From NCBI RefSeq assembly GCF_024502345.1, contig NZ_JALDNN010000001.1: 64,000 nt of DNA; one strand, written 5' to 3'. Under the pieces are notes generated by a model that saw nothing but the letters and a program-made list of their open reading frames with translations, was not told the origin of the DNA and made no database searches. Made by a program: the position numbers and the translations under genes. The stretch comes from Escherichia coli (GTDB taxonomy: Bacteria; Pseudomonadota; Gammaproteobacteria; Enterobacterales; Enterobacteriaceae). Shown one piece after another: positions 1 through 28,845 of the stretch; the stretch's first letter is position 1; every line of letters starts with the position of its first letter.

Positions 1-468
1 CTTCACCGAAGACCTTCAGCCCGGTGGAATCAATTACCAGGTGTGCGATTTCACCCCGGGTGGGCGTTTTGAAACTGACGTTAACCGACTTTGCCCGCCT
101 GCTGACACAGCTGTAATCCGGGCAGCGTAGCGGAACGTTCATCAGAGAAAAAATGGAATCAATAAAGCCCTGCGCAGCGCGCAGGGTCAGCCTGAATACG
201 CGTTTAATGACCAGCACAGTCGTGATGGCAAGGTCAGAATAGCGCTGAGGTCTGCCTCGTGAAGAAGGTGTTGCTGACTCATACCAGGCCTGAATAGCTT
301 CATTATCCAGCCAGAAAGTTATGGAGCCACGGTTGATGAGGGCTTTATTGTAGGTGGGCCAGTTGGTGATTTTGAACTTTTGCTTTGCCACGGAACGGTC
401 TGCGTTGTCGGGAAGATACGTGATCTGATCCTTCAACTCAGCAAAAGTTCGATTTATTCAACAAAGCC
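1..468 (-). mobile_element. IS903-like (IS5 family) insertion sequence, partial: terminal inverted repeat plus N-terminal part of the transposase gene; element continues past the window start
   Basis: Minus-strand translation of 1..~400 reads ...TFAELKDQITYLPDNADRSVAKQKFKITNWPTYNKALINRGSITFWLDNEAIQAWYESATPSSRGRPQRYSDLAITTVLVIKRVFRLTLRAAQGFIDSIF...TRGEIAHLVIDSTGLKVFGE, recognised as IS903 transposase; terminus ...CAGCAAAAGTTCGATTTATTCAACAAAGCC ends at about 468 and matches the IS903 inverted repeat as I recall it. Confidence 0.85.
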
Positions 469-799
469 GCCCTGAAGTAAGAAAATGGTAATAGACCCCA
501 CCGATTTTCGACTAAAAAACAACCCAATAAGGCATTTAAAATTAATGCTATTTAAATCAATAGATTAAAGTGATGATTTTGACAATATGCAGCCCAACTT
601 AAGGGTAAATCAACCTTTCAACAATCAAAACCACACTCCATTAATTTTTATTATTGTGACAATCATCACATTTTACACCTGCGGGTGCTTTGATTTTGTA
701 CATTCACAAAGCTCACCAACCCCAACGACTATGAACGTAAAAAACCTCTTTTTATGCACATATTATTTCCATGTAAATCAATTCATTATGGAGATAATC

Positions 800-1153
800 A
801 TGTTCAAGCTCACGACACCCACCAGTCTTCCCCTTCTCAAACTGTCCGCCTCCGCGCTGGAAGCCCTCAGCAATGAAATCCTTGGCCCCGTCGATGATAT
901 CGACCTGTTTACCGCCTTCTGGAACGAAACGGAAACCCTGCTCTGGCATCTCAACCATGATGACACGCTGCCCGAAGACCCGCTGCTGGCAGTTGCACTG
1001 GCTAACCCGGAATACGTCACCGCACTTGATGATGGCTGGTATCTGCTTCTCGGTATCGTCTGTGATAACGGACAGGGTATCTATCTGGTATTCCCGGACA
1101 CGACCATTATCACTCAACTCCAGAACCTGATTGAGGCGCTGAACCATGAGTAA
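800..1153 (+). CDS. hypothetical small strongly acidic protein (117 aa); first gene of a four-gene operon
   Basis: ORF 587..1153 trimmed to the ATG at 800 preceded by GGAG; many D/E and almost no K/R; stop overlaps the next start (ATGA at 1146). Confidence 0.5.
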   Translation: MFKLTTPTSLPLLKLSASALEALSNEILGPVDDIDLFTAFWNETETLLWHLNHDDTLPEDPLLAVALANPEYVTALDDGWYLLLGIVCDNGQGIYLVFPDTTIITQLQNLIEALNHE

Positions 1154-1577
1154 GAAAAAAATCGCTACCGAAGCCGCCGTCATCGAAAGCTATACCGTGT
1201 TCTACAGGGGTGAAGCCGAGAAAATCAGTCCCCACAGTAAGGGTCTGCTGACGTATGAGTTGGGTAAAGAGGGTGAAACCGGAAGCCTTGCCCTGCGCTT
1301 AACCGCCAATGGCGAAGGGGGGCTGTTCTCCCGTGAATGGATAGCGCTTGATGCGATTCACGCCATTCTTGAACAACAGCAGGACAGTTTCCCGTCCCGG
1401 GTATTCCGCCCGCTGTTTGGTCAGGGCAGCACCAACAACGCCGGGTTTCTTGCCGCTGTACTGAGAAGCCCGGATATCTGTCTTATCGAGGCGGACAGCA
1501 GCAGACTCTTTATGCACCGCTGCTACGCCGACTGGCCGCATCGTATGACGCAGCTTGCCGCACTCAGCCAGGACTAA
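1146..1577 (+). CDS. hypothetical protein (143 aa)
   Basis: ORF with start overlapping the upstream stop (translational coupling); no family recognised. Confidence 0.55.
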   Translation: MSKKKIATEAAVIESYTVFYRGEAEKISPHSKGLLTYELGKEGETGSLALRLTANGEGGLFSREWIALDAIHAILEQQQDSFPSRVFRPLFGQGSTNNAGFLAAVLRSPDICLIEADSSRLFMHRCYADWPHRMTQLAALSQD

Positions 1578-1623
1578 TCCCCACTTTTTCTGTGTTCCAT
1601 ACCCCTTAAAAAGGAAATTCACT

Positions 1624-2052
1624 ATGTCATCACCCGCTATATTGCAGGGCGGCTATGTGCTGCCTCTCTCCCGGTCGTTCACCCAACTGCTTCTGGATAT
1701 CCTCGCGCAAAAACCGCCTCATCGTCACCCCATCACCGGATTAACCATTAACTTCCGTGACCCTGAATACTCACCGGAAAAGGGCGGCTGGCATCCGGTC
1801 GAAATACGCCTCATCCCTGCCGGAGAAGACTGGCAGCTCGATTACGTCACCGATTTTCACTATGCAGGACATCCATGGCCTGAGCTTGAAAAAGATGTCG
1901 ATGTGAGCTGGACGCAACAATACACGTGGCTTTCCCGTTGTGGCGATATCTCTCATGTCGACGCCCGTGAGTTCTGGTCGCTATGGGAAAGTAACTTTAT
2001 GGCTTACCACGATATGGGGGTTTTCACGGTCCGTACGTTGTGGGAAAGCTGA
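1624..2052 (+). CDS. hypothetical protein (142 aa)
   Basis: ORF 1555..2052 trimmed to the ATG at 1624 (MSSPAILQGG...); same strand and tight spacing with neighbours. Confidence 0.5.
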   Translation: MSSPAILQGGYVLPLSRSFTQLLLDILAQKPPHRHPITGLTINFRDPEYSPEKGGWHPVEIRLIPAGEDWQLDYVTDFHYAGHPWPELEKDVDVSWTQQYTWLSRCGDISHVDAREFWSLWESNFMAYHDMGVFTVRTLWES

Positions 2053-2110
2053 GTGTTCACTACGTTTCCCCCGCATCCCCCCTCTCCCCCATAGTAAGGA
2101 ACTGAATGTT

Positions 2111-2575
2111 ATGTACCGGCTTCTGCTGCTTAACTTCGTGGATTCATTTATCGATAACTGCATTCTGTCCTGCGTCGATGAACCGGCTTACGGCGGTATC
2201 GTGCAGTGCGAACTGCTTTTTGGCCTTGCCGCACACAGCGGTATCTATGTGGGTAACGGCGATATTGTTCATCTTGATGGCGATGGAACCGTTATCAAAA
2301 GTAAGGCTAAAGGTTTTCTTGACCGGCTCGATGGCTGGAACTCCGCTATCTCGGTGTATACCGACTGTATGGATTTGACGCCTCAGGGTTGTGCGCGGGC
2401 CGCTGAACGGGCAAAGGCGGCAGTGGGTCAGCGCTATCCTTATAGCCTGCTCGACTTTAACTGCCACCGGTTTACTGCCCGCTGCGTTACCGGCGATTCG
2501 TGCCCTGATATCTGGCTTGCCAGACACCTCGATACATTTCAGAAAGGGGACCGATGGCGCGTATGGCAACGATGA
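2111..2575 (+). CDS. LRAT/NlpC-P60-like putative acyltransferase or thiol hydrolase
   Basis: ORF 1940..2575 trimmed to the ATG at 2111; contains a His box (IYVGNGDIVHLDG) and the NC motif (YSLLDFNCHRF) in the order typical of the LRAT (H-box/NCEHF) family. Confidence 0.5.
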   Translation: MYRLLLLNFVDSFIDNCILSCVDEPAYGGIVQCELLFGLAAHSGIYVGNGDIVHLDGDGTVIKSKAKGFLDRLDGWNSAISVYTDCMDLTPQGCARAAERAKAAVGQRYPYSLLDFNCHRFTARCVTGDSCPDIWLARHLDTFQKGDRWRVWQR

Positions 2576-2793
2576 AAGCCAGCCGTTGCAGGCAACGTGT
2601 CACCGGACAGGGAGAACGGCTTATCCGGCTGACCATGGTGCTGTTTTACGGTCAGACAATATCTGTTCGCTACATCATCCGGCAGTTTGACGTGTCTCCC
2701 CGCACAGCAAGACGGGACCTCGCTCAACTGGCCTTTGTGCTGGAATCCGCTGGCCCTCACCTCTGGCGACTGGCTCCCTCGCTGAAACCCTGA
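2554..2793 (+). CDS. short HTH protein resembling the N-terminal HTH of the YfjR-like regulators in this window (possibly a truncated remnant)
   Basis: ...RLIRLTMVLFYGQTISVRYIIRQFDVSPRTARRDLAQLA parallels the N-termini of the ORFs at 4249 and 47188; overlaps the 3' end of the upstream gene. Confidence 0.3.
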   Translation: MARMATMKASRCRQRVTGQGERLIRLTMVLFYGQTISVRYIIRQFDVSPRTARRDLAQLAFVLESAGPHLWRLAPSLKP

Positions 2794-2867
2794 CTTTTTT
2801 CTCTGCCGGACATCTCCTGACCACCCCGTATGGCAGGCTGTCTCCGCTTTTCAATCCATAAGGGAAC

Positions 2868-3254
2868 ATGATGAAAATTTCTAAACTGTTAACCGCCACA
2901 CTTCTGCTTTCAGCCTTCAGCCACAGCGCATTTGCCGACGAGCAGGCTGACGCTCAGATGATAACCAACTCGACCTTCTGTGCGATGTACTCCACCCGCC
3001 TGACCCAGACCAGTGACAGCGGCCTTCAGGTAAAAGGCGTCAATCTCAATGCCCGCATCAACGGACCGGTATTCAACAGGGTACTTCAGGTGATGAACAA
3101 AACCTATGGCAGAACCTGGCTCGAATCAAATGCCCGTAACGGCAGCATGACCGCCATGCAGCTTTCGCAGTCGGAGCTGCTTTATAACCCGGAATATGCC
3201 CGGCAGTGCGATGCCTTTGCGGATAAAGTGGAAAAGGAATGGCGCGGAAAGTAA
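2868..3254 (+). CDS. secreted/periplasmic small protein of unknown function
   Basis: N-terminal signal peptide MMKISKLLTATLLLSAFSHSAFA; followed by an intrinsic terminator. Confidence 0.6.
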   Translation: MMKISKLLTATLLLSAFSHSAFADEQADAQMITNSTFCAMYSTRLTQTSDSGLQVKGVNLNARINGPVFNRVLQVMNKTYGRTWLESNARNGSMTAMQLSQSELLYNPEYARQCDAFADKVEKEWRGK

Positions 3255-3290
3255 TCCCGACGCGTTATACCTCCATCCGGTGAACAGAAA

Positions 3291-3314
3291 CCTGCTTTCG
3301 GGCAGGTTTTTTTT
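3291..3314 (+). terminator. rho-independent terminator
   Basis: CCTGC-TTTCGG-GCAGG hairpin followed by a run of eight T, 37 nt after the stop at 3254. Confidence 0.55.
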
Positions 3315-3333
3315 ACTTTTTTATTTTTCAGGC

Positions 3334-3348
3334 GGACAAACCCTGTCC
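3334..3348. promoter_or_regulatory. palindrome GGACA-N5-TGTCC (copy 1 of 3), candidate operator
   Basis: GGACAaacccTGTCC, 49 nt upstream of the ATG at 3397; same dyad recurs at 4191 and 47113. Confidence 0.45.
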
Positions 3349-3396
3349 GGGGGCTTCCTTAAACTGTCAGGTCCAATATCTGCAATGAGGTGAAAT

Positions 3397-4146
3397 ATGG
3401 CTACCTACCGACACGACCCTGATCTTGAATTTCTGCGCCACTGCCATCGTGACGATCTGGATTTACTGGTTTCTGTGCTTATCTGCGATCCGAAAGACGG
3501 ACTGGCACGCATCACGGAAACGCTGACCTATGATCCTCAGTATAAAAAACACAAGCCCAACCACCCGCGCTACTGGGATGCCATTGCCGCCGAGGTTCAG
3601 ACGTTTGGGGCGAACAGCTTTGCCACGCTGCTCCGCTGGGGTAAAGGGGTGCTGTACCGGGAAATTCTCACCGATGCCTGCGATAAAATGAAGGTGAACT
3701 ACAACAACAAATCCAGTGTTGAAACCATTGAAATGAATCTGCTGATGAAGATCCTGGAGAAAAGTCTTGAGAAGATGACGCCTGACCAGCTAAAGACCGT
3801 GGCGGAAGAATTGCAGACAGGCTACAGCAACCCCACGCCGGAGTTGCTGACCATGGCAATCCAGGCGGGGATAAAAACATCCGGGTTTGCGGCCTATCAG
3901 ATGGCACTTGTTGTCACAAATGGTGTGGCGAAAGCCCTGTTAGGCAGAGGGCTGACCGTTGCAGGAAATGCCATGCTGACGCGTACCATGGGCGCTTTTG
4001 CCGGTCCCGTGGGCTGGGTGCTCAGTTCTCTCTGGCTGCTGATTGATTTAGCCGGTCCCGCATACCGGGTGACGCTACCATCCTGCATTTTTATTGCCTA
4101 CATGCGCCAGAAGCATCTTTATTCACCTGAGAATACTGACGTTTAG
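3397..4146 (+). CDS. YaaW-like (UPF0174 family) protein
   Basis: N-terminus ...DPDLEFLRHCHRDDLDLLVSVL... and overall length resemble E. coli YaaW as I recall it; glycine-rich hydrophobic C-terminal segment. Confidence 0.6.
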   Translation: MATYRHDPDLEFLRHCHRDDLDLLVSVLICDPKDGLARITETLTYDPQYKKHKPNHPRYWDAIAAEVQTFGANSFATLLRWGKGVLYREILTDACDKMKVNYNNKSSVETIEMNLLMKILEKSLEKMTPDQLKTVAEELQTGYSNPTPELLTMAIQAGIKTSGFAAYQMALVVTNGVAKALLGRGLTVAGNAMLTRTMGAFAGPVGWVLSSLWLLIDLAGPAYRVTLPSCIFIAYMRQKHLYSPENTDV

Positions 4147-4190
4147 CACTTACATTTAAGGTATTCAGACTTTAAAAAACTTCAGAGGGC

Positions 4191-4205
4191 GGACAAATCC
4201 TGTCC
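4191..4205. promoter_or_regulatory. palindrome GGACA-N5-TGTCC (copy 2 of 3), candidate operator
   Basis: gcGGACAaatccTGTCCgc, 44 nt upstream of the ATG at 4249. Confidence 0.45.
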
Positions 4206-4248
4206 GCTACTGCTGGCATCATTTCCCGGCTAAATTCGGAAATGATGT

Positions 4249-4962
4249 ATGACGCTGATAACACAAGAAAACGAACATGACAGACTGGCAACCCGCCTTT
4301 CCATCATCCTGAGCCGTTTGTTTCAGGGTGAAAAGCTGCATATCGGGACGCTGGCAGAAGAATTTGGAGTGACGACGCGAACGCTGCGACGGGATTTCAA
4401 CGTCCGTCTGACCTACCTTGATATTGAACAGAGCAACGGCGTGTATCAGCTTGCCTCACATTACTTTCGTCGCCGCACGGAACGGGATATGAAGATACTG
4501 GCGAGGTTGCTGCATCTTGACCGTCTGTTACCCGCGATGGATGCCAAACTACTGAGCCTGATGCTTGACGGGGAACGTCCCTCGCCATACAGGATTATGC
4601 TACCGGAGCCGCGCCAGAAACCCACCCTTTTCGGTGATTTCAGCAGACTGACGCTCGCCATACTTAACCAGACCCAGGTGCGTATCAGAACCGACGAAAA
4701 CGTCAGCCATACCGTTCATCCCTACCGTCTGCTTTGCAGCCATGCGGAGTGGTTTCTTGCCGGATGTACGTCATCGGGCGTGTTCGTTATTTCCCTGTCC
4801 CGAATCAGGCTGGTTGAGGTATTACCGGATACAACGTTTGAGATCGATAACACACTCATTTCGCTGATTGAACAGTCTGACTTTATGGAAGCCTTACCCC
4901 ACATGAACATTATTCATCAGATAATGCATTACGGGAGTAAACAGACGAATAATCGTAATTAA
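4249..4962 (+). CDS. HTH transcriptional regulator, YfjR-like (DeoR-type HTH plus WYL-type C-terminal region)
   Basis: N-terminal HTH RLSIILSRLFQGEKLHIGTLAEEFGVTTRTLRRDFN; paralogous to the ORF at 47188. Confidence 0.6.
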   Translation: MTLITQENEHDRLATRLSIILSRLFQGEKLHIGTLAEEFGVTTRTLRRDFNVRLTYLDIEQSNGVYQLASHYFRRRTERDMKILARLLHLDRLLPAMDAKLLSLMLDGERPSPYRIMLPEPRQKPTLFGDFSRLTLAILNQTQVRIRTDENVSHTVHPYRLLCSHAEWFLAGCTSSGVFVISLSRIRLVEVLPDTTFEIDNTLISLIEQSDFMEALPHMNIIHQIMHYGSKQTNNRN

Positions 4963-5393
4963 AATCACAACATATTATTAGTGATGATTAAATCACATTA
5001 ACATGATAAGTGAGAAAGTTATGATTATCGATAAAGAATACGCACTTGTAAATGCAACAGCAAGACTTAACACTGACCTGAGGGATTATGAATATGAAAT
5101 AAACAACGCCGCCATCATAACATTTGGCAATGACCTCATTGAGGTAATCGTATATCAGTTCAGCTTTGTCATCAGCATCAGGGCAGAGGGTGAAAAAATA
5201 AAGCACGGCCTACTTGTTAACTTCGGTAAAAATATAGCAAGACAGGTTTCATCACTTTGTGCATCCGCAATGCGAGTCTACCCGAATGAAAAACACAAAC
5301 CGAGCCGTCAGCTTTTCCATTGCATAAATTAGTTTGTGCAAAGACTGTACTACCGACACGCAATAAATTAAAATAGGCCAGCTAATATAACAT

Positions 5394-7271
5394 ATGAGGT
5401 TTATGATGGCTGGCCAGTATGAAAAAGCAATAACGATAAAACAAGCGATAGATTCAATTAATTTACGCCACTATCTTCTGCCTGCAATTCAGAGGAAGTT
5501 CGTCTGGAGCAGCAGTCAAATATGTTTGCTGTTTGATTCCATCATGCGAGACTACCCGATAAACTCTTTCATGATGTGGGATATCCGTAGTGCCAGTATT
5601 AAAAATGATTACAAATTCTATGAATTCCTGAAAGAATACTGTCAGCGATTTAATGAAGAAAACCCCTGCGTAGCAACAAATGCTGGATTTCATGATTTCA
5701 AGGCGGTGATTGATGGTCAGCAGCGTCTCACATCATTATATATTGGATTGTGTGGAACGTATGCGTATAAACAGCCCCGGGTGTGGTGGCCTTCGGCACA
5801 GGATGATCGCATCCTGCCGCCCAGAAAGCTTTACGTCGATTTAACAGCGCCACTTAATTCAGACGATGAGCTCATGATGAAGTATAACTTCAGGTTCCTG
5901 ACCGACAAGCAATACGCTGATTCACTTACAGACAACAAGCATCACTGGTTCTGCCTGCACGAAATATTCAAATACGAGCAACATGATTCGCCTGATGATA
6001 TTTTATTTAACGTTGTCGTACCAGAACTCGAAAAAAGAGGACTCATTTCCAGTGAATTTTCCAGAAAAACATTACTGAGACTTTATACAAAAATAAGAAC
6101 TGAGAACATCATCCACTACTTCAATGAGAGTAGTCAGGATATTGACCATGTGCTGGATGTTTTCATACGCACGAACAGCGGGGGGACAAAACTTGAGTTC
6201 TCCGACTTACTGATGTCAATAGCGGTAGCGCACTGGCAGGGTGATTTCAGAAGAGAACTGGATGAACTGACAAAAAACATTTATCAGAATAATGAAATGG
6301 GGTTTTATATTGAAAGAGACTGGTTCTTAAAAACCAGCCTGATGCTTATTGACTCTGACGTCCGGTTCAAAGTAAAAAACTTCACTTCAGAGGAGGTCGG
6401 TAAGATACAACAACAATGGTCTGAAATAAAATCCTGCATCAAGGAGACTTTTATTCTTATCAGGCGATTCGGCATCAATCCACAGTCTTTGATATCTAAA
6501 AATGCAGTCATTCCTGTGGTCTACTGGCTTTACAAAAAGCAAACCAGTGGACATCCATTATATACAACGATTAACCTCCTGAATAAAAACCACAATGAAC
6601 GCTCAGTAATTAGCCAGTGGTTTTACATGGTACTTCTGAAAGGGATCTTTGGAAGCCAGGCAGATGCGCTACTCACGAGTATCAGAGATGTAATGAAAAA
6701 TAGTCTTTCAGATATTCACTTTCCTCTTGAAAAGATTATTGACAGATATAAAGGCTCGAATAAAGACCTCAGATTTGACGACGAATACATCGAAAGCCTT
6801 CTCAATATCAGATATGGCGAAGGTCGTTGCCGCGCACTATTGCATCTTCTGTTCCCTGAAATGAATCCGACCGAGGTGTTTCATATTGATCACCTTCACC
6901 CAAGAAATCACTTCTCAAAGAAATATCTTGAAAAATTAGATTATGTTGCGAACTCACCAGAGAACCTCAGCTTTTATGAAAACCCGGAACACTGGGACAC
7001 CATACCTAATCTTCATTTACTGAATCATTCTCAGAATATAAGTAAACAGGATACTTCCCTGAAACAATGGCTATCTCAGCCATCAAACAACTATTCGCCA
7101 TCAATGCTGTTAGTTTCAGATGAAAATATTGAGTTCAGTCGCTTCCCGGAATTCTACAATGAACGAAGAAACGCCCTGAAGCAAAGACTACTGAATCGGG
7201 TATTTCTTACAACAAAAATAGATTCATCACCATCCACAATCGATACGGATGAAGAAATTCTCACCGACTGA
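5394..7271 (+). CDS. DUF262/DUF1524 protein, GmrSD-like putative type IV (modification-dependent) restriction endonuclease
   Basis: N-terminal DUF262 hallmark ...AVIDGQQRLTSL... (DGQQR motif); C-terminal His-rich HNH-like region ...FHIDHLHPRNHF...; sits directly upstream of hsdM. Confidence 0.75.
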   Translation: MRFMMAGQYEKAITIKQAIDSINLRHYLLPAIQRKFVWSSSQICLLFDSIMRDYPINSFMMWDIRSASIKNDYKFYEFLKEYCQRFNEENPCVATNAGFHDFKAVIDGQQRLTSLYIGLCGTYAYKQPRVWWPSAQDDRILPPRKLYVDLTAPLNSDDELMMKYNFRFLTDKQYADSLTDNKHHWFCLHEIFKYEQHDSPDDILFNVVVPELEKRGLISSEFSRKTLLRLYTKIRTENIIHYFNESSQDIDHVLDVFIRTNSGGTKLEFSDLLMSIAVAHWQGDFRRELDELTKNIYQNNEMGFYIERDWFLKTSLMLIDSDVRFKVKNFTSEEVGKIQQQWSEIKSCIKETFILIRRFGINPQSLISKNAVIPVVYWLYKKQTSGHPLYTTINLLNKNHNERSVISQWFYMVLLKGIFGSQADALLTSIRDVMKNSLSDIHFPLEKIIDRYKGSNKDLRFDDEYIESLLNIRYGEGRCRALLHLLFPEMNPTEVFHIDHLHPRNHFSKKYLEKLDYVANSPENLSFYENPEHWDTIPNLHLLNHSQNISKQDTSLKQWLSQPSNNYSPSMLLVSDENIEFSRFPEFYNERRNALKQRLLNRVFLTTKIDSSPSTIDTDEEILTD

Positions 7272-7474
7272 ACGTTCAGCCCCGATAGTATTGGGGCTTC
7301 AGTATTTATCATCAGCGCAACGTTTCTACTGGCCTGGCTGAAAGAGCATTGGCTACACAACCGGGCAAACGAACTCTCAGTGCAACGTATGACATACAAA
7401 GCCTGTCATCAATATGAAATTGCGATAAAATCGGGCCAATAACAGTACTTAAGAATCATACAACAGGATACAAA

Positions 7475-9031
7475 ATGACAAGCCTTCAGCAGCGTGCAGA
7501 GCTACACCGTCAAATCTGGGCCATTGCCAATGATGTCAGAGGCTCCGTAGATGGGTGGGATTTTAAACAGTATGTACTCGGTGCACTTTTCTACCGCTTC
7601 ATCAGTGAGAATTTTTCCAGCTACATGGAAGCAGGGGATGAGAGCATACATTATGCAGCACTTGATGACAGCATCATTACCGATGACATCAAAGACGATG
7701 CCATCAGGACTAAAGGCTATTTCATCTACCCGAGCCAGCTGTTCTGCAACGTTGCCGCTAAAGCGAACACCAACGACAGGCTGAATGCTGATTTAAACAG
7801 TATCTTCGTCGCTATAGAAAGCTCTGCCTACGGCTACCCGTCAGAGGCCGACATCAAAGGCCTGTTCGCCGATTTCGATACGACCAGCAATCGACTGGGG
7901 AACACAGTTAAAGACAAAAACAGCCGTCTTGCCGCGGTTCTGAAAGGGGTTGAAGGGTTAAAACTTGGTGACTTCAACGAACATCAGATTGACCTGTTCG
8001 GTGATGCCTATGAGTTCCTGATTTCTAACTATGCCGCAAATGCCGGTAAGTCAGGCGGTGAGTTCTTTACACCGCAGCACGTCTCCAAGCTGATTGCACA
8101 ACTGGCTATGCACGGGCAGACCAGCGTTAACAAAATCTACGACCCGGCAGCGGGTTCCGGCTCACTGTTGTTGCAGGCGAAAAAACAGTTTGATAACCAC
8201 ATCATCGAAGAAGGCTTTTTCGGTCAGGAAATCAACCATACGACCTATAACCTGGCGCGTATGAACATGTTTTTGCACAATATCAACTACGACAAGTTTG
8301 ATATCAAGCTGGGTAATACACTGACTGAGCCGCACTTCAGAGATGAAAAACCGTTTGACGCCATCGTATCTAATCCACCGTATTCGGTGAAATGGATTGG
8401 CAGCGATGACCCGACGCTGATTAACGATGAACGTTTTGCCCCGGCTGGCGTTCTGGCCCCCAAATCCAAAGCTGACTTTGCGTTTGTATTACATGCACTG
8501 AACTATCTTTCTGCCAAAGGTCGTGCTGCGATTGTCTGCTTCCCGGGTATTTTTTACCGTGGCGGCGCAGAGCAGAAAATCCGTCAATATCTGGTCGACA
8601 ATAACTATGTCGAAACCGTGATTTCACTGGCACCGAACCTGTTCTTTGGCACCACCATTGCCGTCAATATTCTGGTGCTGTCTAAACATAAAACGGATAC
8701 CAAAGTTCAGTTTATTGATGCCAGCGAATTATTCAAAAAAGAGACTAACAACAATATCCTGACCGATGCCCATATCGAACAGATTATGCAGGTATTTGCC
8801 AGCAAGGAAGATGTTGCTCATCTGGCGAAATCTGTCGCGTTTGAGACCGTTGTCGCTAATGACTATAACCTGTCGGTGAGCTGCTATGTAGAAGCGAAAG
8901 ATAACCGCGAAATTATCAATATTGCTGAGCTAAATGCAGAGCTTAAAACTACGGTTAGCAAAATCGACCAGTTGCGTAAAGATATTGATGCGATTGTGGC
9001 TGAAATTGAAGGCTGCGAGGTGCAGAAATGA
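7475..9031 (+). CDS. hsdM: type I restriction-modification system, N6-adenine DNA methyltransferase subunit HsdM
   Basis: 518 aa; NPPY motif ([10 protein letters not shown]); AdoMet-binding region [10 protein letters not shown]; stop overlaps the hsdS start (ATGA). Confidence 0.95.
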
Positions 9032-10200
9032 GCGAGTTGAGTTATCTGGAAAAATTGCTGGATGGGGTTGAGGTTGAGTGGAAATCATTGGGAGATGTTG
9101 TAAATTTTCAGCGCGGAAGGCGGCTCGTAAAATCTCAGTTAGAAACCAGAGGTAAATATGCGGTTTACCAAAACAGCATGACACCACTCGGTTACTATCA
9201 TGAGTATAATGTCGCAGCTCAATCTTCGTTCATTATCTGTGCGGGTGCAGCCGGTGAAATTGGTTATAGCGAAAATGAATTTTGGGCTGCCGACGATGTT
9301 CATTTCGCAATCACACCAGAATATATAAATGACAGGTTTTTGTTTCATTTTTTGTTGACGCAAAAGAATAAAATTTCAGGACAAGTACGCCGTGCCAGTA
9401 TTCCGCGTCTCTCAAAGTCAGTAATTGAAAAACTTGAATTCCCCATCCCCTGCCCGGATAATCCGGAAAAGTCCCTTGCCATCCAGTCTGAAATCGTTCG
9501 GATTCTGGATAAATTTACTGCACTTACCGCTGAGCTTACCGCTGAGCTTAACATGCGTAAAAAACAGTACAACTACTATCGCGACCAGTTGCTGAGTTTT
9601 GATGAGGGTGAGGTTGAGTGGAAGGCTTTGGAGGAAGTCTCAACTTTTGCTAATGGAAAGGGGCATGAAAAAGACATATCAGAAGACGGTAAATATATTG
9701 TTGTAAACTCTAAGTTTATATCTACCAATGGCGAAGTCGCCAAGTTATCAAACAAACAGCTATGCCCTCTTTTTAAAGACGATATTCTTTTGGTTATGAG
9801 TGACCTGCCCAATGGCAAAGCACTTTCAAAAACATTTATTGTTGATGAAGATCATAAATACACTTTAAACCAACGTATTGGTGGAATTACAGTAAAAAAC
9901 AGTAATGAATTACTCCCTAAGTTTTTGCACTATTTTTTAAATAGAACCCCGCAATTGCTGAAACATGACAATGGTGTTGATCAAACAAATTTGCGTAAAG
10001 GTCAAATACTTGAAGTAAAAATACCAATAATTTCACTCATCAAACAAGTTCAGATCGTTGAAACTCTTGATAAATTCGATACTTACACTAAGTCGATTTC
10101 AGAAGGCCTCCCGCGCGAAATCGAGCTGCGCCATAAACAGTACGAGTACTATCGTGATTTATTGTTCAGCTTCCCGAGACCAGAAACCGCCAGCAACTGA
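9028..10200 (+). CDS. hsdS: type I R-M specificity subunit HsdS (type IC-like)
   Basis: Two target-recognition domains separated by a conserved central region with the TAEL repeats (LTAELTAEL) and a related C-terminal repeat (...[14 protein letters not shown]). Confidence 0.9.
9523..9550 (+). repeat. 12-bp direct repeat CTTACCGCTGAG x2 (plus partial CTTA) in the hsdS central spacer region
   Basis: Read directly: cttaccgctgag cttaccgctgag ctta, encoding LTAE-LTAE-L. Confidence 0.9.
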
Positions 10201-10316
10201 CGGACCATTGATACCGGCAGGGTTTGTTCTCACCCGCCCGGTATCAGGCTTTAAGAATGCCGGAAGATGCTTCTGATACCCTTCCGGAATTTGCCAGATG
10301 ACGCACAGGATGCACC

Positions 10317-13300
10317 ATGACACAACAGATACACACCATTGCTGAATCCAATAACTTTATCGTCCTTGATAAATACACCAAAGTTCTGGAGAACGGCGAC
10401 AGCTACCAGAGCGAATCGGATCTTGAGCGGGAACTGATTCAGGACCTTCTGAATCAGGGCTATGAATTTATATCCGTTAAGTCACCGACAGCGATGCTGG
10501 CGAATGCACGGGACCAGCTTCAGCATCTTAATGGTGTGGTGTTTAACGAAAGTGAATGGCGGCGCTTCGCAGAGCAGTATCTGGACAGCCCCAGTGACAG
10601 CAGCCTGGACAAAACTCGTAAAATCCATATCGACTATATCTGTGATTTCACGTTTGATGACGGTCGTCTGGAAAACATCTATCTGATAGATAAAAAGAAC
10701 CTGCTGCGCAATAAGGTGCAGGTCATTCAGCAGTTTGAACAGACCGGCTCACACGCTAACCGTTATGACGTCACCATTCTGGTTAACGGCCTGCCACTGG
10801 TGCAAATCGAACTCAAAAAGCGCGGCGTGGCTATTCGTGAAGCCTTTAACCAGATACACCGTTACAGCAAGGAAAGCTTTAACAGCGACAACTCCCTGTT
10901 TAAATACCTGCAACTGTTTGTGATATCTAACGGAACCGATACCCGGTACTTTGCCAGTACCACTAAGCGGGATAAAAACAGCTTTGATTTCACCATGAAC
11001 TGGGCGAAGTCGGATAACACTCTGATTAAGGACCTGAAGGACTTTACCGCCACCTTCTTCCAGAAACATACCCTGCTGAATGTTCTGTTTAATTACAGCG
11101 TGTTTGACAGCAGCCAGACTCTGCTCGTCATGCGCCCCTATCAGATTGCCGCCACTGAGCGAATCCTCTGGAAAATTAACAGCTCATTTAAAGCGAAGAA
11201 TTGGTCAAAACCCGAAAGCGGCGGGTTTATCTGGCATACCACCGGGTCAGGCAAAACCCTGACCAGTTTTAAGGCTGCACGACTGGCAACCGAACTGGAC
11301 TTTATAGACAAAGTCTTCTTCGTGGTCGACAGAAAAGACCTTGATTACCAGACAATGAAGGAGTATCAGCGCTTTTCTCCGGACAGCGTCAACGGTTCGG
11401 ATAATACAGCAGGCCTCAGAAGAAACCTGGATAAGGACGATAACAAAATCATCGTCACAACCATTCAGAAACTCAATAACCTGATGAAAGCCGAAGCTGA
11501 CCTGCCCGTCTATCAGCAGCAGGTAGTGTTTATCTTTGATGAGTGTCACCGCAGCCAGTTTGGTGAGGCCCAGAAAAACCTCAAAAAGAAATTCAGACGC
11601 TTTTATCAGTTTGGTTTTACCGGTACGCCTATTTTCCCGGAAAATGCACTGGGGGCAGAAACCACAACCAGCGTGTTCGGGCGTGAGTTACATTCTTACG
11701 TCATTACTGATGCGATTCGTGATGAAAAAGTACTGAAGTTTAAGGTGGACTATAACGATGTCCGCCCACAGTTTAAGTCTCTTGAAACGGAAACAGACGA
11801 GAAAAAACTCAGCGCGGCTGAAAACCAACAGGCATTTTTGCACCCCCTGCGTATCCAGGAAATAACGCAATACATTCTCAATAACTTCCGGCAGAAAACA
11901 CACCGAACCTTCCCGGGAGCTAAGGGCTTTAACGCCATGTTAGCAGTTAGCAGCGTGGACGCGGCGAAAGCTTATTACACGACGTTTAAAATGCTACAGG
12001 AAGAAGCAGAGAAGAAATCTGGCAGCTATAAATGCCTTCGGGTGGCAACCATCTTCTCCTTTGCTGCAAATGAAGAGCAAAGCGCCATTGGTGATATTAC
12101 TGACGAAAGCTTTGATACCAGTGCAATGAACAGCAGCGCGAAGGAATTCCTGGATTCAGCCATTGATGACTATAACAATCACTTTAAAACCAATTTCAGC
12201 ACCGACAGTAACGGTTTCCAGAACTACTACCGCAATTTAGCTCAACGAGTGAAAAATCAGGATATTGACCTTCTCATCGTGGTGGGAATGTTCTTGACTG
12301 GCTTTGATGCCCCGACGCTTAACACTCTTTTCGTTGACAAAAACCTCCGTTATCACGGCCTGATGCAGGCATTTTCCCGCACAAACCGTATCTATGATGC
12401 CACCAAAACCTTCGGCAATATCGTGACTTTCAGGGATCTGGAGCGTCCGACCATTGATGCCATCACACTATTTGGCGACAAAAACACCAAGAATGTGGTG
12501 CTGGAAAAAAGCTACGAAGAGTACATGCAGGGCTTTACCGATGCGGCAACCGGTGAGGCTAAACGAGGTTTTATGGCTGTTGTTTCGGAGCTGGAGCAGC
12601 GCTTCCCTGACCCTGCCAGTATCGACAGTGAAAAAGAGAAAAAAGCCTTCGTCAAACTGTTTGGTGAATATCTGCGGGCAGAAAACATCCTGCAAAACTA
12701 TGATGAATTTGCCACGCTGAAAGCCCTGCAGAAGGTTGATATTAGTGACCCGGAAGCGGTAGAAACCTTTAAAGCAGAGCACTATGTGGATGATGAAAAA
12801 TTTGCTGAATTACAAACCATTCGTCTCCCGGCAGAACGTAAAGTTCAGGACTATCGCTCAGCATACAATGATATCCGGGACTGGCAGCGACGCGAAAAAG
12901 CATCAAACGACAGGGATAAATCAACCACAGACTGGGATGACGTGGTGTTTGAAATTGACCTGCTGAAGTCGCAGGAAATTAACCTGGATTACATCCTTGG
13001 TCTGATTTTCGACCACAATCGTCAGAAAAAAGGTAAAGAAGCCCTGACTGAAGAGGTCAGACGCTTAATCCGCTCAAGTCTGGGCAACCGTGCCAAAGAA
13101 GGTCTGATTGTTGACTTTATTCAGCAAACTAACCTTGATGACATGCCGGACAAGGCCAGTATCATTGATGCATTCTTTACCTATGCTCAGCGTGAACAGC
13201 AACGGGAAGCAGAGGCGTTGATTAAGGAAGAAAACCTCAATGAAGAGGCTGCAAGGCGCTATATCCGCACATCACTAAAACGGGAGTATGCCACCGAAAA

Positions 13301-13433
13301 TGGGACGGAGCTAAATGAGACGCTACCAAAGCTCAGTCCGCTGAATCCTCAGTACAAAACGAAAAAGCAGACTGTATTCCAGAAAATTGGGGCATTTATC
13401 GAAAAATTTAAAGGGGTTGGAGGACACCTCTAG
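10317..13433 (+). CDS. hsdR: type I R-M restriction subunit HsdR (SF2 helicase/translocase plus nuclease)
   Basis: 1038 aa; Walker A ([10 protein letters not shown]) and DEAD-box motif II ([10 protein letters not shown]). Confidence 0.95.
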
Positions 13434-14516: not shown

Positions 14517-15782
14517 ATGGCACTGACTGACGCAAAAATCCGGGCTGCAAAGCCCACTGACAAGGCTTATAAACTCACTGACGGGGCCGGCATGTTCCTG
14601 CTGGTTCATCCTAATGGTTCCCGTTACTGGCGTCTCCGTTATCGTATTCTGGGTAAGGAGAAAACCCTGGCACTTGGTGTGTATCCGGAAGTTTCTCTCT
14701 CCGAAGCTCGTACAAAACGGGATGAGGCCCGAAAACTGATTTCGGAGGGGGTTGACCCTTGCGAACAGAAAAGAGCTAAAAAAGTAGTCCCTGATTTACA
14801 ACTCTCTTTTGAACATATTGCACGACGCTGGCATGCCAGTAATAAACAATGGGCACAATCACACAGCGATAAAGTACTCAAAAGCCTCGAGACACACGTT
14901 TTCCCCTTTATCGGCAACCGGGATATCACAACACTCAGTACCCCGGACCTGCTTATCCCTGTTCGTGCTGCAGAAGCTAAACAAATTTATGAAATCGCCA
15001 GTCGTCTGCAGCAAAGAATATCTGCTGTAATGCGTTATGCCGTACAGTCTGGCATCATCAGATATAACCCGGCTCTGGATATGGCTGGTGCATTGACCAC
15101 GGTAAAACGCCAGCATCGCCCTGCTCTGGATCTTTCACGCCTGCCTGAACTTCTGTCGCGTATTGACGGTTATAAAGGCCAGCCTGTCACCCGACTGGCA
15201 GTTATGCTGAATTTACTGGTTTTTATTCGTTCCAGTGAACTCAGATATGCCCGCTGGTCTGAAATTGATATTGACAATGCCATGTGGACTATTCCAGCCG
15301 AACGCGAACCTCTGCCAGGCGTAAAATTTTCATACCGGGGCTCCAAGATGCGAACACCACATCTTGTGCCACTCAGCCAACAGGCTGTAGCCATACTGGC
15401 AGAACTTCAGACATGGGCAGGTGAAAATGGTCTGATCTTTACGGGAGCACATGACCCACGTAAACCAATCAGTGAAAACACCGTAAATAAAGCCCTGAGG
15501 GTTATGGGGTATGACACAACCCAGGATGTCTGTGGTCATGGATTCCGGGCGATGGCATGTAGTGCATTAATAGAATCAGGTTTGTGGTCCCGCGATGCTG
15601 TGGAACGCCAGATGAGCCATCAGGAGCGTAATGGTGTACGTGCTGCGTATATCCATAAAGCCGAACATCTGGAAGAACGTCGACTTATGCTACAGTGGTG
15701 GGCCGATTTTCTGGATGCAAACAGAGAAAGATTTATCAGTCCATTTGAATATGCAAAGATTAATAATCCATTAAAACAATAA
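14517..15782 (+). CDS. int: P4-type tyrosine integrase
   Basis: 421 aa; N-terminus MALTDAKIRAAKPTDKAYKLTDGAGMFLLVHPNGSRYWRLRYR is characteristic of P4-like integrases; lies about 200 bp downstream of the tRNA-Phe fragment. Confidence 0.9.
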   Translation: MALTDAKIRAAKPTDKAYKLTDGAGMFLLVHPNGSRYWRLRYRILGKEKTLALGVYPEVSLSEARTKRDEARKLISEGVDPCEQKRAKKVVPDLQLSFEHIARRWHASNKQWAQSHSDKVLKSLETHVFPFIGNRDITTLSTPDLLIPVRAAEAKQIYEIASRLQQRISAVMRYAVQSGIIRYNPALDMAGALTTVKRQHRPALDLSRLPELLSRIDGYKGQPVTRLAVMLNLLVFIRSSELRYARWSEIDIDNAMWTIPAEREPLPGVKFSYRGSKMRTPHLVPLSQQAVAILAELQTWAGENGLIFTGAHDPRKPISENTVNKALRVMGYDTTQDVCGHGFRAMACSALIESGLWSRDAVERQMSHQERNGVRAAYIHKAEHLEERRLMLQWWADFLDANRERFISPFEYAKINNPLKQ

Positions 15783-15786
15783 TCCT

Positions 15787-15827
15787 CCCGGGAAAATGCC
15801 CGGGAACCACCCGGGGATTATTTTTTG
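15787..15827 (+). terminator. putative terminator downstream of int
   Basis: CCCGGG-aaaatg-CCCGGG hairpin region followed by ATTATTTTTT. Confidence 0.35.
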
Positions 15828-15949
15828 TTAAAAAAGGCAAAACGATATTAACTGATGTATTAAATGTTTACCGGATTGCTCCCTGCAGGTGGATTATCAG
15901 AATCCGCAGTTATTCGTTATTTATATATATTCAATAAAAAGAAACATCA

Positions 15950-15983
15950 TAAAAAATCCCGCACCCACAGGGTGATGCGGGAT
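15950..15983 (-). terminator. putative rho-independent terminator for the minus-strand gene ending at 16104
   Basis: ATCCCGCA / TGCGGGAT stem with 12-nt loop, followed on the minus strand by a T run. Confidence 0.4.
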
Positions 15984-16103
15984 AACTGACGTAAGGAATG
16001 CTGCCGGGATTTGGTGGTCCCTTGTGCTGATATGAATACAGGTTCTATTCTATACAGAATCCTTTTCAGTACAAGAGACTGTATTACAGTTTGCCATATA
16101 TGA

Positions 16104-17603
16104 TTACCTGTGGTCCGGAAGAATAAGTGGCTGCGGTTTCAGACTGTCTGCCGGCACATTTTTCTCTCCGTTAAAAACCATAACGGGTTCATTATCTTCG
16201 TCTGTCAGCGGATTGAATGGCGGTATATTTTCGGTACGAATACCGGTCAGCCACTGAAAAATGCCTGCGAAATTACGGGCACTGATTTTCCTGCTGACGG
16301 ACTGATGAGACGTGATGTCACTGGCGGTAATAATCAGGGGAACGCTGTAGCCCCCCTGCACATGACCATCATGATGAACAGGATTAGCACTGTCGCTGAC
16401 CGACAGCCCATGGTCAGAAAAGTAAAGCATTGCAAAGTGACGGGAATGCCGGCGAAGGATACCATCAAGCTGATCGAGAAAGTTATCCAGTTTACTGATG
16501 CTGGCGAGGTAACAGGCAATCTTTCGGGGATACTGCTCCAGGTAATAATTCGGCCAGGAGTTAAGTCGGTCACACGGATTCGGATGAGAGCCAATCATGT
16601 GCAGGAAAATCACCTTCGGCGAGGATTTATCCGCCAGCGCACGTTCTGTTTCCTGTAACAACAACATGTCATCCGTTTTACGGGAAGCGAAGCTGCCTTT
16701 CTTGAGGAAAACGGTATGCTCCGCATCAGAAGCAATAACAGAGATGCGTGTGTCATGCTCTCCCAGTTTTCCCTGATTGGATATCCACCATGTGCTGTAT
16801 CCTGCTTTTGCTGCCAGCGCCACCACGTTGTTGCCGGAGTCAGGGTTCTGCTCATAGTCATAAATCAGTGTCCGGCTCAGGGAAGGTACGGTACTGGCTG
16901 CTGCCGATGTATAGCCGTCAATAAATAAACCGGGAGCCGTATTCAGCCATGGTGTGGTTGGCACGGGATAGCCATATACCGACATATAATCCCTGCGCAC
17001 ACTCTCACCAGTAACGATAACAATCGTGTCATACAACGGTGTTCCCGGCAGGATTTTCCAGTTGTCAGCCCCGTGCTGACTCAGTTGTTTATAACGCTGC
17101 ATTTCACGCAATGTGTCAGTTGTTCCCACAACAATTCCTTTAACCATCCGCAACGGCCAGCTGTTTACAGAGCATAATACGAACAGCAGCAGTGCCAGCC
17201 AGTTACGGTGACCGCGGTGGTGTGTCCGCCAGAAAATCACCATGAATACCAGAATCGCGGCACTGACCAGAAAATGATAAACAGGAATCATCCCGGTAAA
17301 CTCTGCAGCCTCATCAGCCGTGGTCTGCAGCAACGCGACAATAAAACTGTTGTTGATTTTACCGTACGTCATACCCGCAGGCGCATACAGTGCACAACAG
17401 AACAGAAATAACAGCGTTGTAATGGATGTGAGGGTATTTCTGTGTGCAAGGAGAAGAAGGAGAAACAGAAGCAGCACATTTCCTGTGGCATTCTTCTCAG
17501 TGTATCCGCATGCAATTGTGATTATCACAGAAATAACAAAAAAGAATAAAAACAATAAAATCCGGGGTGTGTCGCCCGGACAAAACAGTTTTCTGATATT
17601 CAT
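16104..17603 (-). CDS. sulfatase-family phosphoethanolamine transferase (EptA/YhbX-like inner membrane protein)
   Basis: N-terminal multi-TM region then sulfatase-like domain with ...IVTGESVRRDYMSVYGY... and ...IFLHMIGSHPNP... motifs. Confidence 0.7.
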   Translation of the reverse strand: MNIRKLFCPGDTPRILLFLFFFVISVIITIACGYTEKNATGNVLLLFLLLLLAHRNTLTSITTLLFLFCCALYAPAGMTYGKINNSFIVALLQTTADEAAEFTGMIPVYHFLVSAAILVFMVIFWRTHHRGHRNWLALLLFVLCSVNSWPLRMVKGIVVGTTDTLREMQRYKQLSQHGADNWKILPGTPLYDTIVIVTGESVRRDYMSVYGYPVPTTPWLNTAPGLFIDGYTSAAASTVPSLSRTLIYDYEQNPDSGNNVVALAAKAGYSTWWISNQGKLGEHDTRISVIASDAEHTVFLKKGSFASRKTDDMLLLQETERALADKSSPKVIFLHMIGSHPNPCDRLNSWPNYYLEQYPRKIACYLASISKLDNFLDQLDGILRRHSRHFAMLYFSDHGLSVSDSANPVHHDGHVQGGYSVPLIITASDITSHQSVSRKISARNFAGIFQWLTGIRTENIPPFNPLTDEDNEPVMVFNGEKNVPADSLKPQPLILPDHR

Positions 17604-17762
17604 CGGAGTATATCGACAACATTATTATGAAGAGAACAGGATAATAAAAATCAGAAATTATCTGTAAAACAGATAACAGACAACCCTGCAGTATAATTAC
17701 TGCAGGGTGTTTCCTTTTAATTACAGAAGATAAGTAATTATTATCTTTCAGGAGCAGTTTCG

Positions 17763-18503
17763 TCAGAAGTTATAAGTCACACCAAGCATGATGTCATGAC
17801 TTTTAACATCAACCTCTGATTTATATTTATCGCCCCACTCATCCTTGTAACTCACACTGCTGTCACCTGCATCAATATAGCGATAGCTGAGGTCAAGAGC
17901 GATATCCGGGGTTACGTCATAACGGACACCAGCCCCAAGGCTCCATGCAAAGTTGTCAGCAGAGTCTGAGTGTGACAACGACTCACGCCCACTGTACCCG
18001 TACCCGTAATCCCAAGTACTGATACCAGTTGTTTTCTGATGAATTCTGGCGTAACCAATCCCTGCGGATACCCATGGTGTGAATGCACTGTCGTTCCGGA
18101 AGTCATAGTACGTATTCAGCATCAGAGTGTTGACTGACACTTCATTCTTCAGGTCATCACGCCAGTAACCACCTGACCAGCTGTCTTTATCTACGTTATA
18201 CTTCGAATCAGCTTTTCCACGCGCGTAAAACTCCAGTTCTGTACGAACCGGAATACTGAACTGCGGATAAAAATCATAACCGGCCGCAATACCGCCACTG
18301 AATACCGTATCATGGTCATCGCCGCCTTTATACTTTGACGTTTCTTCCTCATCTCCTGACAGGAAACGCTGGTCTGAAAGTGACACCACAGAGGCACCGG
18401 CTTTACCGGTCAGATAAAAACCGCTTTTACCTTCCTCAGCACCTGCATTTGCTGCAAATACACAGGCTGCGGCCACCACTGAAACAGCAAAAACCTTTTT
18501 CAT
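17763..18503 (-). CDS. outer membrane beta-barrel protein, Tia/Hek/PagN-like (Ail/OmpX superfamily)
   Basis: Signal peptide MKKVFAVSVVAAACVFAANAGA; alternating aromatic beta-strand pattern; C-terminal ...GVTYNF. Confidence 0.6.
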   Translation of the reverse strand: MKKVFAVSVVAAACVFAANAGAEEGKSGFYLTGKAGASVVSLSDQRFLSGDEEETSKYKGGDDHDTVFSGGIAAGYDFYPQFSIPVRTELEFYARGKADSKYNVDKDSWSGGYWRDDLKNEVSVNTLMLNTYYDFRNDSAFTPWVSAGIGYARIHQKTTGISTWDYGYGYSGRESLSHSDSADNFAWSLGAGVRYDVTPDIALDLSYRYIDAGDSSVSYKDEWGDKYKSEVDVKSHDIMLGVTYNF

Positions 18504-19732: not shown

Positions 19733-20566
19733 GTGATGTTGATGTGTGATGCGACCGGTCTGTCGCAACGTCGTGCCTGCAGGCTTACAGGTTTATCCCT
19801 GTCGACCTGCCGCTATGAGGCTCACCGTCCGGCTGCTGATGCGCATTTATCAGGGCGCATCACTGAGCTGGCACTGGAGCGCAGGCGTTTTGGCTACCGT
19901 CGTATTTGGCAGTTGCTGCGCCGTGAAGGGCTTCATGTTAATCATAAGCGCGTGTACCGGCTTTATCACCTCAGTGGCCTGAGCGTAAAACGCAGAAGAC
20001 GTCGTAAAGGGCTGGCAACAGAACGTCTGCCGCTGCTCCGTCCGGCGGCGCCCAATCTGACCTGGTCGATGGATTTCGTCATGGACGCACTTTCCACCGG
20101 TCGCAGGATCAAGTGTCTTACCTGCGTCGATGATTTCACAAAGGAATGCCTGACGGTCACTGTTGCCTTTGGGATTTCAGGCGTTCAGGTCACGCGTATT
20201 CTGGACAGCATTGCACTGTTTCGAGGCTATCCGGCGACGATAAGAACTGACCAGGGGCCGGAGTTCACTTGCCGTGCACTGGATCAATGGGCCTTTGAGC
20301 ATGGTGTTGAGTTGCGCTTAATCCAGCCGGGCAAGCCAACGCAGAACGGATTTATTGAGAGCTTTAACGGACGATTTCGCGATGAATGTTTGAATGAGCA
20401 CTGGTTCAGCGATATCGTTCATGCCAGGAAAATTATTAATGACTGGCGGCAGGATTATAACGAATGCCGCCCGCACTCCACGCTGAATTATCAGACACCG
20501 TCTGAATTTGCAGCGGGCTGGAGAAAGGGTCATTCTGAGAATGAAGATTCCGACGTTACTAACTGA
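19733..20566 (+). CDS. IS3-family transposase OrfB (DDE integrase-like catalytic domain)
   Basis: ...[10 protein letters not shown]...[50 protein letters not shown]... Confidence 0.85.

Positions 20567-27840: not shown

Positions 27841-28845
<1,005 letters not shown>

Follow-up and report, generated by a model that had tools for sequence, protein, structure and literature searches.

Near one end of a 64,000-nucleotide stretch of Escherichia coli DNA (assembly GCF_024502345.1, contig NZ_JALDNN010000001.1; the whole analysed stretch is hereafter called the window), four co-directional genes, here named A to D, follow the end of a copy of the insertion sequence (IS) IS903B. A previous reading of this region, made from the sequence alone, had described them as an operon that could not be placed in any described system and had proposed for it, next to restriction-modification (R-M) genes, a toxin-immunity, anti-defence or defence function. 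Here, we report comparative analyses in which these genes are identified, with good support, as part of the operon that forms the backbone of an integrative element of the pipolin-like kind. The element is a variant equipped with a Cch-type helicase and an LRAT gene, and was stranded in this genome by IS903B. The features of the region are listed in Table 1.

The Operon and Its Boundaries

The four open reading frames (ORFs) at positions 800-2575 are all intact, lie on the same strand and have the full length of their homologues, and the same four genes are called by the RefSeq annotation in E. coli. In the comparison with the orthologues of E. coli BY68, the ratio of non-synonymous to synonymous differences (pN/pS) was 0.16 for A, 0.06 for B, 0.19 for C and 0.22 for D, and A-D are, therefore, real genes under purifying selection. 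The sequence-only reading was thus accurate in its description of four intact genes preceded by an IS903 fragment. Its operon, on the contrary, was too short. A and B overlap by 8 nt, B and C are separated by 46 nt, and C and D by 58 nt; D, in turn, overlaps by 22 nt with a further gene, E, which is followed by F. Since the hairpin downstream of F is the only strong terminator-like site on the + strand between 800 and 3400, the transcription unit most likely comprises the six genes A-F (800-3254) and would end at this hairpin.

The IS903B copy truncates the island on its integrase side, and the match to an intact element of E. coli ETEC6 (locus L001 of our collection) starts exactly at position 469 of the window. 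Upstream of A, an imperfect inverted repeat of 21 nt is present (567-587 and 652-672, 86% complementary, with the arms 64 nt apart), which may be an operator or an arm site for a recombinase. A scan of the region 469-799 gave no match to the sigma-70 consensus at the threshold used, and no RNA family was found by Rfam in positions 1-8000. A promoter-like hairpin formed by single-stranded DNA upstream of A was also considered, and was judged not convincing on folding z-scores of only –1.7 and –2.3.

Table 1. Coordinates of the features described in the window.
Feature	Position	Strand	Description
Upstream IS	1-468		Terminal part of a copy of IS903B, 99.8% identical to E. coli transposase genes of IS903B
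Operon upstream region	469-799	+	AT-rich; 91% identical to L001; in intact elements, divergent intergenic region shared with an SXT-type integrase gene
Gene A	800-1153	+	117 aa; very acidic alpha/beta protein; partner gene of B
Gene B	1146-1577	+	143 aa; three-stranded beta-sheet and predicted winged-helix domain
Gene C	1624-2052	+	142 aa; DUF2787
Gene D	2111-2575	+	154 aa; LRAT/PLAAT-type NlpC-P60 enzyme
Gene E	2554-2793	+	79 aa; basic; only a DeoR/WYL-type N-terminal helix-turn-helix (HTH)
Gene F	2868-3254	+	128 aa; N-terminal signal peptide; last gene ahead of the terminator
Terminator-like hairpin	3286-3311	+	11-bp stem followed by a T run
DUF3944/JukA-like gene	3397-4146	+	Backbone gene
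HTH-WYL regulator	4249-4962	+	Backbone gene
109-aa protein	5003-5332	+	Backbone gene
Island cargo	5394-13433		DUF262/GmrSD-like gene (PADLOC HEC-05, E 3.9e-231), then a complete type I R-M system
Type I R-M, hsdM	7475-9031		
Type I R-M, hsdS	9028-10200		
Type I R-M, hsdR	10317-13433		

An Integrative Element Related to Pipolins

The DNA of positions 780-2800 is present in 113 of 5426 complete E. coli genomes, with 90-98% identity and always in the chromosome, and no DNA match of the module was found in plasmids or phages. At the protein level, a tblastn search of 72,556 plasmid records retrieved B in 2 and C in 14 of them, and a single viral contig was matched; the idea of a plasmid or phage cargo was rejected on these results. 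Three intact E. coli copies were inspected over their whole length, and in all of them a P4-type integrase gene, a small ORF encoding an Arm domain, a DUF927 gene and an SXT-type integrase gene precede the divergent A-F operon, which is followed by the DUF3944 gene, the HTH-WYL regulator, the gene of the 109-aa protein and a variable cargo (DUF262/HEC-05, type I R-M). The DUF927 protein resembles Cch1, the replicative helicase of the staphylococcal cassette chromosome (SCC) elements (E 3.6e-19), and a tRNA-Phe gene flanks the island in two of the three copies (ETEC6 and BY68). The window has neither an integrase gene to the left of the operon nor a tRNA gene, although all three orthologous loci inspected in E. 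coli carry an integrase; the integrase side was removed by IS903B, no DUF927 gene is found, and the replicative gene of this particular element is not visible because of the truncation.

According to Mateo-Caceres et al. (NAR 2024, PMC11551731), gammaproteobacterial pipolins have a conserved core made of piPolB, the integrases IntSXT and IntP2, a DUF2787 protein and two orphan proteins, together with a WYL protein. This core lies near the integration site and is not exchanged, while defence cargo is swapped at the distal end (PMC11551731). In the window, a DUF2787 gene, two orphan genes and a WYL regulator occur together, and A and B very probably correspond, by homology and gene order, to the two orphan core genes, and C to the DUF2787 core gene. 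The module can therefore be placed in a described system, contrary to what had been proposed, because A-B-C fit the description given of pipolin core genes. Homologues of A, B and C were indeed found beside piPolB in several of the loci collected (L009, L020, L022-24, L026, L029 and L038), where the order is Int, an 85-aa protein, A, B, C and a small HTH gene, followed further on by WYL, an 866-aa protein, xis and a second Int. The B subfamily of these loci is about 53% identical to B of the window. The 866-aa protein carries DTE (D59/E61) and KTRG (623-626), which we take to be the motifs of the E. coli piPolB, and is presumably this polymerase. In the 64-kb window, a hidden Markov model (HMM) built from piPolB homologues found nothing, and all 26 well-flanked loci with A, B, C and D and a nearby replicative gene have DUF927 and none has piPolB. 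The pipolin-type A-B-C set occurs in 334 of the 5426 E. coli genomes. The two types of element can coexist, since E. coli YPE12 (NZ_CP041442.1) has a DUF927/LRAT-type module at about 815 kb and an A-B-C set of the piPolB type at about 1978 kb.

The conservation of the module was examined in 132 loci, 40 from genomes and 80 from metagenomes collected with an alignment of B, plus those gathered earlier, by means of iterated HMMs for A-D; the counts that follow are limited to loci with enough flanking sequence. The complete set ABCD was found in 42 loci, A-B-C without D in 27 (including all true pipolins), B alone in 18, A-B without C and D in six, and A-B-D without C in five. The set is therefore conserved, as its syntenic occurrence in dozens of loci and in several gammaproteobacterial orders indicates, and none of its genes is linked to a metabolic pathway. 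The range of B comprises Vibrionales, Alteromonadales, Oceanospirillales, Methylococcales, Solimonas and one betaproteobacterium. A, where present, is always immediately upstream of B, and in the most distant B loci no A is detectable; C is frequent among the B loci. Of the 56 loci in which B is flanked by 4.5 kb or more on each side, 52 have a tyrosine recombinase gene no further than 5 kb away from it, and in distant taxa B is directly beside tyrosine or serine recombinase genes. On this distribution, B is the gene that anchors the module in evolution. A gene for a small membrane protein, DUF1232, adjoins B in two metagenomic loci that are not related to each other (L006:1793-2101 and L137:2438-2782), and in L006 it is placed between A and B.

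Proteins A and B

The first product is as acidic as had been noticed (isoelectric point, pI, 4.05; 18 D+E residues vs. 2 K+R). Its structure is modelled with confidence, with a predicted local distance difference test score (pLDDT) of 90, and its matches in AFDB are only uncharacterised gammaproteobacterial orthologues. The suggestion that A could be a DNA-mimic anti-restriction protein found no support and is disfavoured at the level of the fold, with no match to Ocr, ArdA or ArdB/KlcA. An orthologue 97% identical to A bears the name SMI1/KNR4 in AFDB, and one of 32 members of the family gave a weak Pfam match to SUKH-1 (E 0.03); profile searches give no support to a relationship with SUKH (SMI1/KNR4, PF09346). 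It should be noted that homologues of A were recovered as neighbours of B, A being too divergent for search patterns derived from alignments.

Neither A nor B belongs to a known family in Pfam, NCBIfam, PADLOC or PDB sequence and profile searches, and their PHROGs matches are only to families of unknown function. B defines a large family of its own, which comprises 1159 representative clusters at E ≤ 1e-3 in profile searches and is without a Pfam entry; none of 146 diverse members has a significant Pfam match. Its model, again confident (pLDDT 89; predicted template modelling score, pTM, 0.82), shows a three-stranded sheet that precedes a winged-helix domain, and ends in a C-terminal helix. 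The third helix carries the near-invariant motif S-x-N-N-x-G-F-L-A-A-x-L-R, and on it S95, N97, N98, F101 and L106 are each kept in more than 90% of the 146 divergent members.

Protein C and Its PsiB-Like Motif

C is a DUF2787 protein (Pfam PF10980, E 1.8e-32), and PDB profile searches align it with two solved homologues, VC0508 (2W56, E 1e-43) and VC1805 (2V1L, E 3e-42). VC1805 has been described as a monomer with a Mam33-like (p32-like) fold (PMC2881812; the PDB code is confirmed in PMC2883930), and, by this homology, a Mam33/p32-like fold is assigned to C.

The most conserved block of DUF2787, residues 46-72 of C, resembles residues 50-76 of PsiB, an inhibitor of the SOS response in conjugation. 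Of 11 members searched with the NCBIfam model, three show the similarity, always at this position and with sub-threshold E values of 0.04-0.1; for C itself it is confined to residues 48-72 and reaches 13.6 bits (E 0.04) against a curated cut-off of 100. In PDB searches PsiB was matched with E 1.2 by phmmer and E 0.27 by profile, and hhalign aligned 27 columns with 44% identity and a probability of 67%. Neither a whole-protein match nor a significant profile match between C and PsiB was obtained. The 5000 best plasmid matches to PsiB are all at least 80% identical, so no diverse PsiB alignment could be built.

In the few plasmids that carry a DUF2787 gene, it has RadC on one side and YeeU, DUF905, AlpA or GTPase genes downstream, and RadC/YeeU/DUF905/AlpA sets are typical of plasmid leading regions (cf. 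that of F) and of CP4-57-like islands (cf. an island of E. coli). A RadC-like gene also lies close to VC0508 in VSP-II. This context, the PsiB-like motif and the presence of DUF927 in mobilised islands fit a role of C in conditioning the host or in establishment, although they do not prove it.

Protein D and the Genes E and F

The assignment of D to the LRAT/NlpC-P60 enzymes, already made from the sequence, was confirmed by a significant profile match (Pfam LRAT PF04970, E 3.6e-9) and by the presence, in order, of the His…His…NC(E/H)xF triad. Human HRASLS2/PLAAT structures (4dpz) align with D over its full length (E 7e-6), with H42, H54 and C118 in register; LytE and C40 peptidases are weak matches in the structure search. 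Since H42, H54 and C118, the last within NCHRF, are kept in 48-51 of 51 homologues, D is probably an active Cys-His-His enzyme. It has no secretion signal. In 29 of 31 well-flanked loci that contain it, D is paired with DUF927, and in none with piPolB. D is found only in the DUF927 lineage and has the look of a gene inserted there between C and E. Near the position of D, true pipolins have a gene on the minus strand for a 272-aa alpha/beta-hydrolase with a weak DUF726 and a faint LCAT match in Pfam (L009:2853-3671), which may be a lipid-acting analogue of the LRAT gene.

E matches the PADLOC WYL model at positions 4-42 (E 3.5e-6) and an NCBIfam UlaR/DeoR HTH model, and its homologues come after C or D in both pipolins and DUF927 elements. 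F has a signal peptide (MMKISKLLTATLLLSAFSHSAFA/DEQ), was kept in 10 of the first 51 loci and gave no family match in scans of NCBIfam, PADLOC and other libraries. Small proteins with signal peptides are encoded right after the small HTH gene in both types of element, F here and two of 131 and 135 aa in pipolins (L020:2939-3769); no homology between F and the pipolin proteins was found by hhalign (probability below 10%).

Neighbouring Genes and Cargo

The R-M genes that had been described as adjacent to the module are indeed present, although not next to it: they begin at 7475, 4.9 kb beyond the end of D, with five genes between E and hsdM. The defence annotations of the region are likewise downstream, since A-D match no PADLOC-DB v2 family at E ≤ 0.1 and matches were obtained only for JukA, WYL and HEC-05. 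The DUF3944 protein matches the PADLOC JukA models with E 3.5e-72; as it is not followed by a JukB-like partner and its gene occupies a conserved backbone position in the DUF927-type element (13 loci), it may not act here as a Juk defence system. The other two backbone genes, for the WYL regulator and the 109-aa protein, also occur in true pipolins.

Further downstream, a second P4-type integrase gene (14517-15782) starts another island (14517-18503), which encodes an outer-membrane protein and a phosphoethanolamine transferase. This order is repeated downstream of the element in E. coli BY68, and the window is, on this basis, a tandem island array like those at tRNA-Phe. It also contains an IS3-family transposase gene (19733-20566), heavy-metal P-type ATPase genes of the ZntA (21563-24064) and CopA (25160-27655) types, a zinc transporter gene of the cation diffusion facilitator family (27841-28845) and a group II intron reverse transcriptase/maturase gene (34000-35523).

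Proposed Function and Alternative Explanations

We favour, with moderate confidence, the explanation that A-F, with A-D as the promoter-proximal part, make up the backbone operon of an integrative element of the chromosome, sister to the gammaproteobacterial pipolins, and that they serve the life cycle or the establishment of this element. The operon would control the excised, replicating state of the element and condition the host for it, and would be neither a defence of the cell nor an addiction module. In particular, B, probably together with the acidic A, would bind a conserved nucleic-acid structure or a host factor at the recombinase end and so help to set the activity of integrase, excision or replication; C would bind and neutralise a host protein, as the small acidic leading-region protein PsiB does; D would be an accessory acyltransferase or hydrolase that forms a thioester and acts on a lipid, a lipidated or a peptide substrate; and E would co-regulate these functions together with the WYL protein.

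Several observations weigh against this explanation. The inverted repeat upstream of A is conserved in E. coli ETEC6 and not in the BY68 variant, and the unusually invariant third helix of B is unexpected for a repressor that would have to recognise operators of different sequence in each element; both points speak against B as a simple repressor. No experiment or significant homology gives A or B a biochemical role, and the link of C to PsiB consists of one motif of 27 residues, below significance. DUF927 is a conserved and unexplained feature of the islands mobilised by IncC and SXT elements (PMC7449626), and in MGIVchHai6-type islands its deletion left excision and mobilisation unaffected (PMC7449626), so that genes conserved in the backbone of such islands do not necessarily take part in these steps. 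Moreover, the neighbourhood is rich in defence genes, and position alone would be compatible with a defence role.

A related possibility, which we regard as doubtful although worth retaining, is that the genes form an establishment or anti-defence operon like the leading region of a conjugative plasmid, in which A, an acidic inhibitor perhaps of the SUKH type, and C, PsiB/Mam33-like, would neutralise host RecA and the SOS response, nucleases or toxins, with B and E as regulators and with entry of the element possibly as single-stranded DNA mobilised by a helper. The high acidity of A, the SMI1/KNR4 name of its close orthologue and the SUKH-1 match of one member, the recurrence of the PsiB-like motif at one position of C in both the family and the PDB searches, the company of RadC, YeeU, DUF905 and AlpA that DUF2787 keeps elsewhere, VSP-II included, and the documented mobilisation of DUF927 islands by IncC/SXT helpers (PMC7449626) all point in this direction, but the PsiB match is far below its cut-off, these elements are not known to have an oriT or a relaxase or to depend on a helper, and the module is hardly ever found on plasmids. 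A and C may still have an anti-defence or establishment role. In a stronger form, DUF2787 would be a remote homologue of PsiB and A-B-C(-D) the chromosomal counterpart of the plasmid leading region: pipolin-type islands would enter or replicate via single-stranded or otherwise SOS-provoking DNA, C would sequester RecA or another host protein that processes DNA, A would be a SUKH-like inhibitor, B a winged-helix factor recognising a conserved DNA structure, and D would remodel the envelope. We consider this unlikely; if true, it would reveal an unrecognised establishment module common to a very large, unannotated and integrase-linked family of more than 1100 B-family clusters.

An anti-phage defence or abortive infection system, as the sequence-only reading had envisaged among its options, appears quite unlikely. 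In such a system D would be the effector, attacking membrane phospholipids as PLAAT/LRAT enzymes do in eukaryotes, and A-C would sense the infection or restrain D. The intact triad of D, its nearest structures, which are phospholipase A/acyltransferases, the hydrolase found near the same position in true pipolins and the cargo of the island (HEC-05, type I R-M and the JukA-like gene) are consistent with this, and a study of the Vibrio pangenome put LRAT, DUF2787, RNase HI and integrase genes in one association cluster with predicted defence systems (PMC12409351), an association that is, however, explained by linkage on one island. On the other hand, A-D are without any PADLOC match, A-B-C are backbone genes that are retained while defence cargo is swapped, and D is missing from most of the phylogenetic range of A-B-C. 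A literature search for LRAT in anti-phage systems gave nothing relevant.

The proposal of a toxin-immunity or addiction module, in which D would be a toxin, the small acidic A and/or C its antidotes and the stabilisation of the island the outcome, is very unlikely. It would agree with the arrangement of small acidic proteins followed, at tight spacing, by an enzyme, and with the NlpC/P60 superfamily, which includes cell-wall hydrolases and some members of which act as toxins. Nevertheless, toxin and antidote do not show the obligate co-occurrence expected of them: there are at least 27 well-flanked loci in which A-B-C are retained although D is missing, and six with A-B but neither C nor D, from which it follows that A, B and C are not dedicated antidotes, and the five loci in which D is retained when C is lost weaken C as the partner of D. 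D also lacks a secretion signal.

One A-B-C backbone serves two replication modules, piPolB and a Cch-like helicase (334 and 113 of the 5426 E. coli genomes, respectively). Defence systems have a reservoir in pipolins and related minimalist islands, whose backbone genes are obvious candidates for movement, replication and self-regulation. In this perspective, the module should not be grouped with the neighbouring R-M genes as a new system of defence or toxicity; it is a tractable entry to island biology, for which the winged-helix B family, the possible DUF2787-PsiB link and the LRAT gene of the helicase lineage offer experimental handles. The A-B-C core has already been published, as genes to which no function was assigned; the papers that could be searched appear not to describe the DUF927/LRAT variant, the folds assigned here to A and B, how large the B family is, the linkage of D with DUF927 or the PsiB-like motif in DUF2787.

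Comparison with Known Systems

With the eukaryotic PLAAT/HRASLS and LRAT enzymes, D shares the H-box histidine, the second histidine and the cysteine of the NC motif in the same order; unlike PLAAT/HRASLS proteins, it is bacterial, has a Trp/Arg-rich tail instead of a C-terminal transmembrane anchor and is encoded in the operon of a mobile element. VC0508 and VC1805 of Vibrio cholerae belong to the same family as C, with about 35-45% identity, and are likewise encoded on integrase-bearing genomic islands, VSP-II and VPI-2, respectively, which are much larger and have other backbones. The gene sets of leading regions and CP4-57-like islands (PsiB, Ssb, ArdB/KlcA, RadC, YeeU, DUF905) recall the operon in the position of DUF2787 between RadC and YeeU/DUF905 on plasmids and in their small acidic products, whereas A-F are without ssb, ardA/B, radC and psiA, are chromosomal and are nearly absent from plasmids.

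The mobilisable islands of the MGIVchHai6/MGIVflInd1 type are also small and integrative, with a conserved DUF927 gene next to genes for an integrase and recombination directionality factors and with R-M and resistance cargo (PMC7449626), but they are defined by AcaCD/SetCD boxes, mobI/oriT and integration at trmE or yicC, and A-D have not been reported in them. From the pipolins, its sister elements, the element of the window type differs in having a DUF927/Cch-like helicase in place of piPolB, an LRAT gene between C and E, a divergent rather than co-directional integrase gene, a position beside tRNA-Phe in two of the three E. coli copies inspected, and proteins only about 30-55% identical. 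In both, orthologues of A, B, C and E and of the genes for the WYL regulator and the 109-aa protein occur in synteny beside an SXT-type integrase, and both are bimodular, with a conserved backbone joined to an exchangeable defence cargo (type I R-M, HEC).

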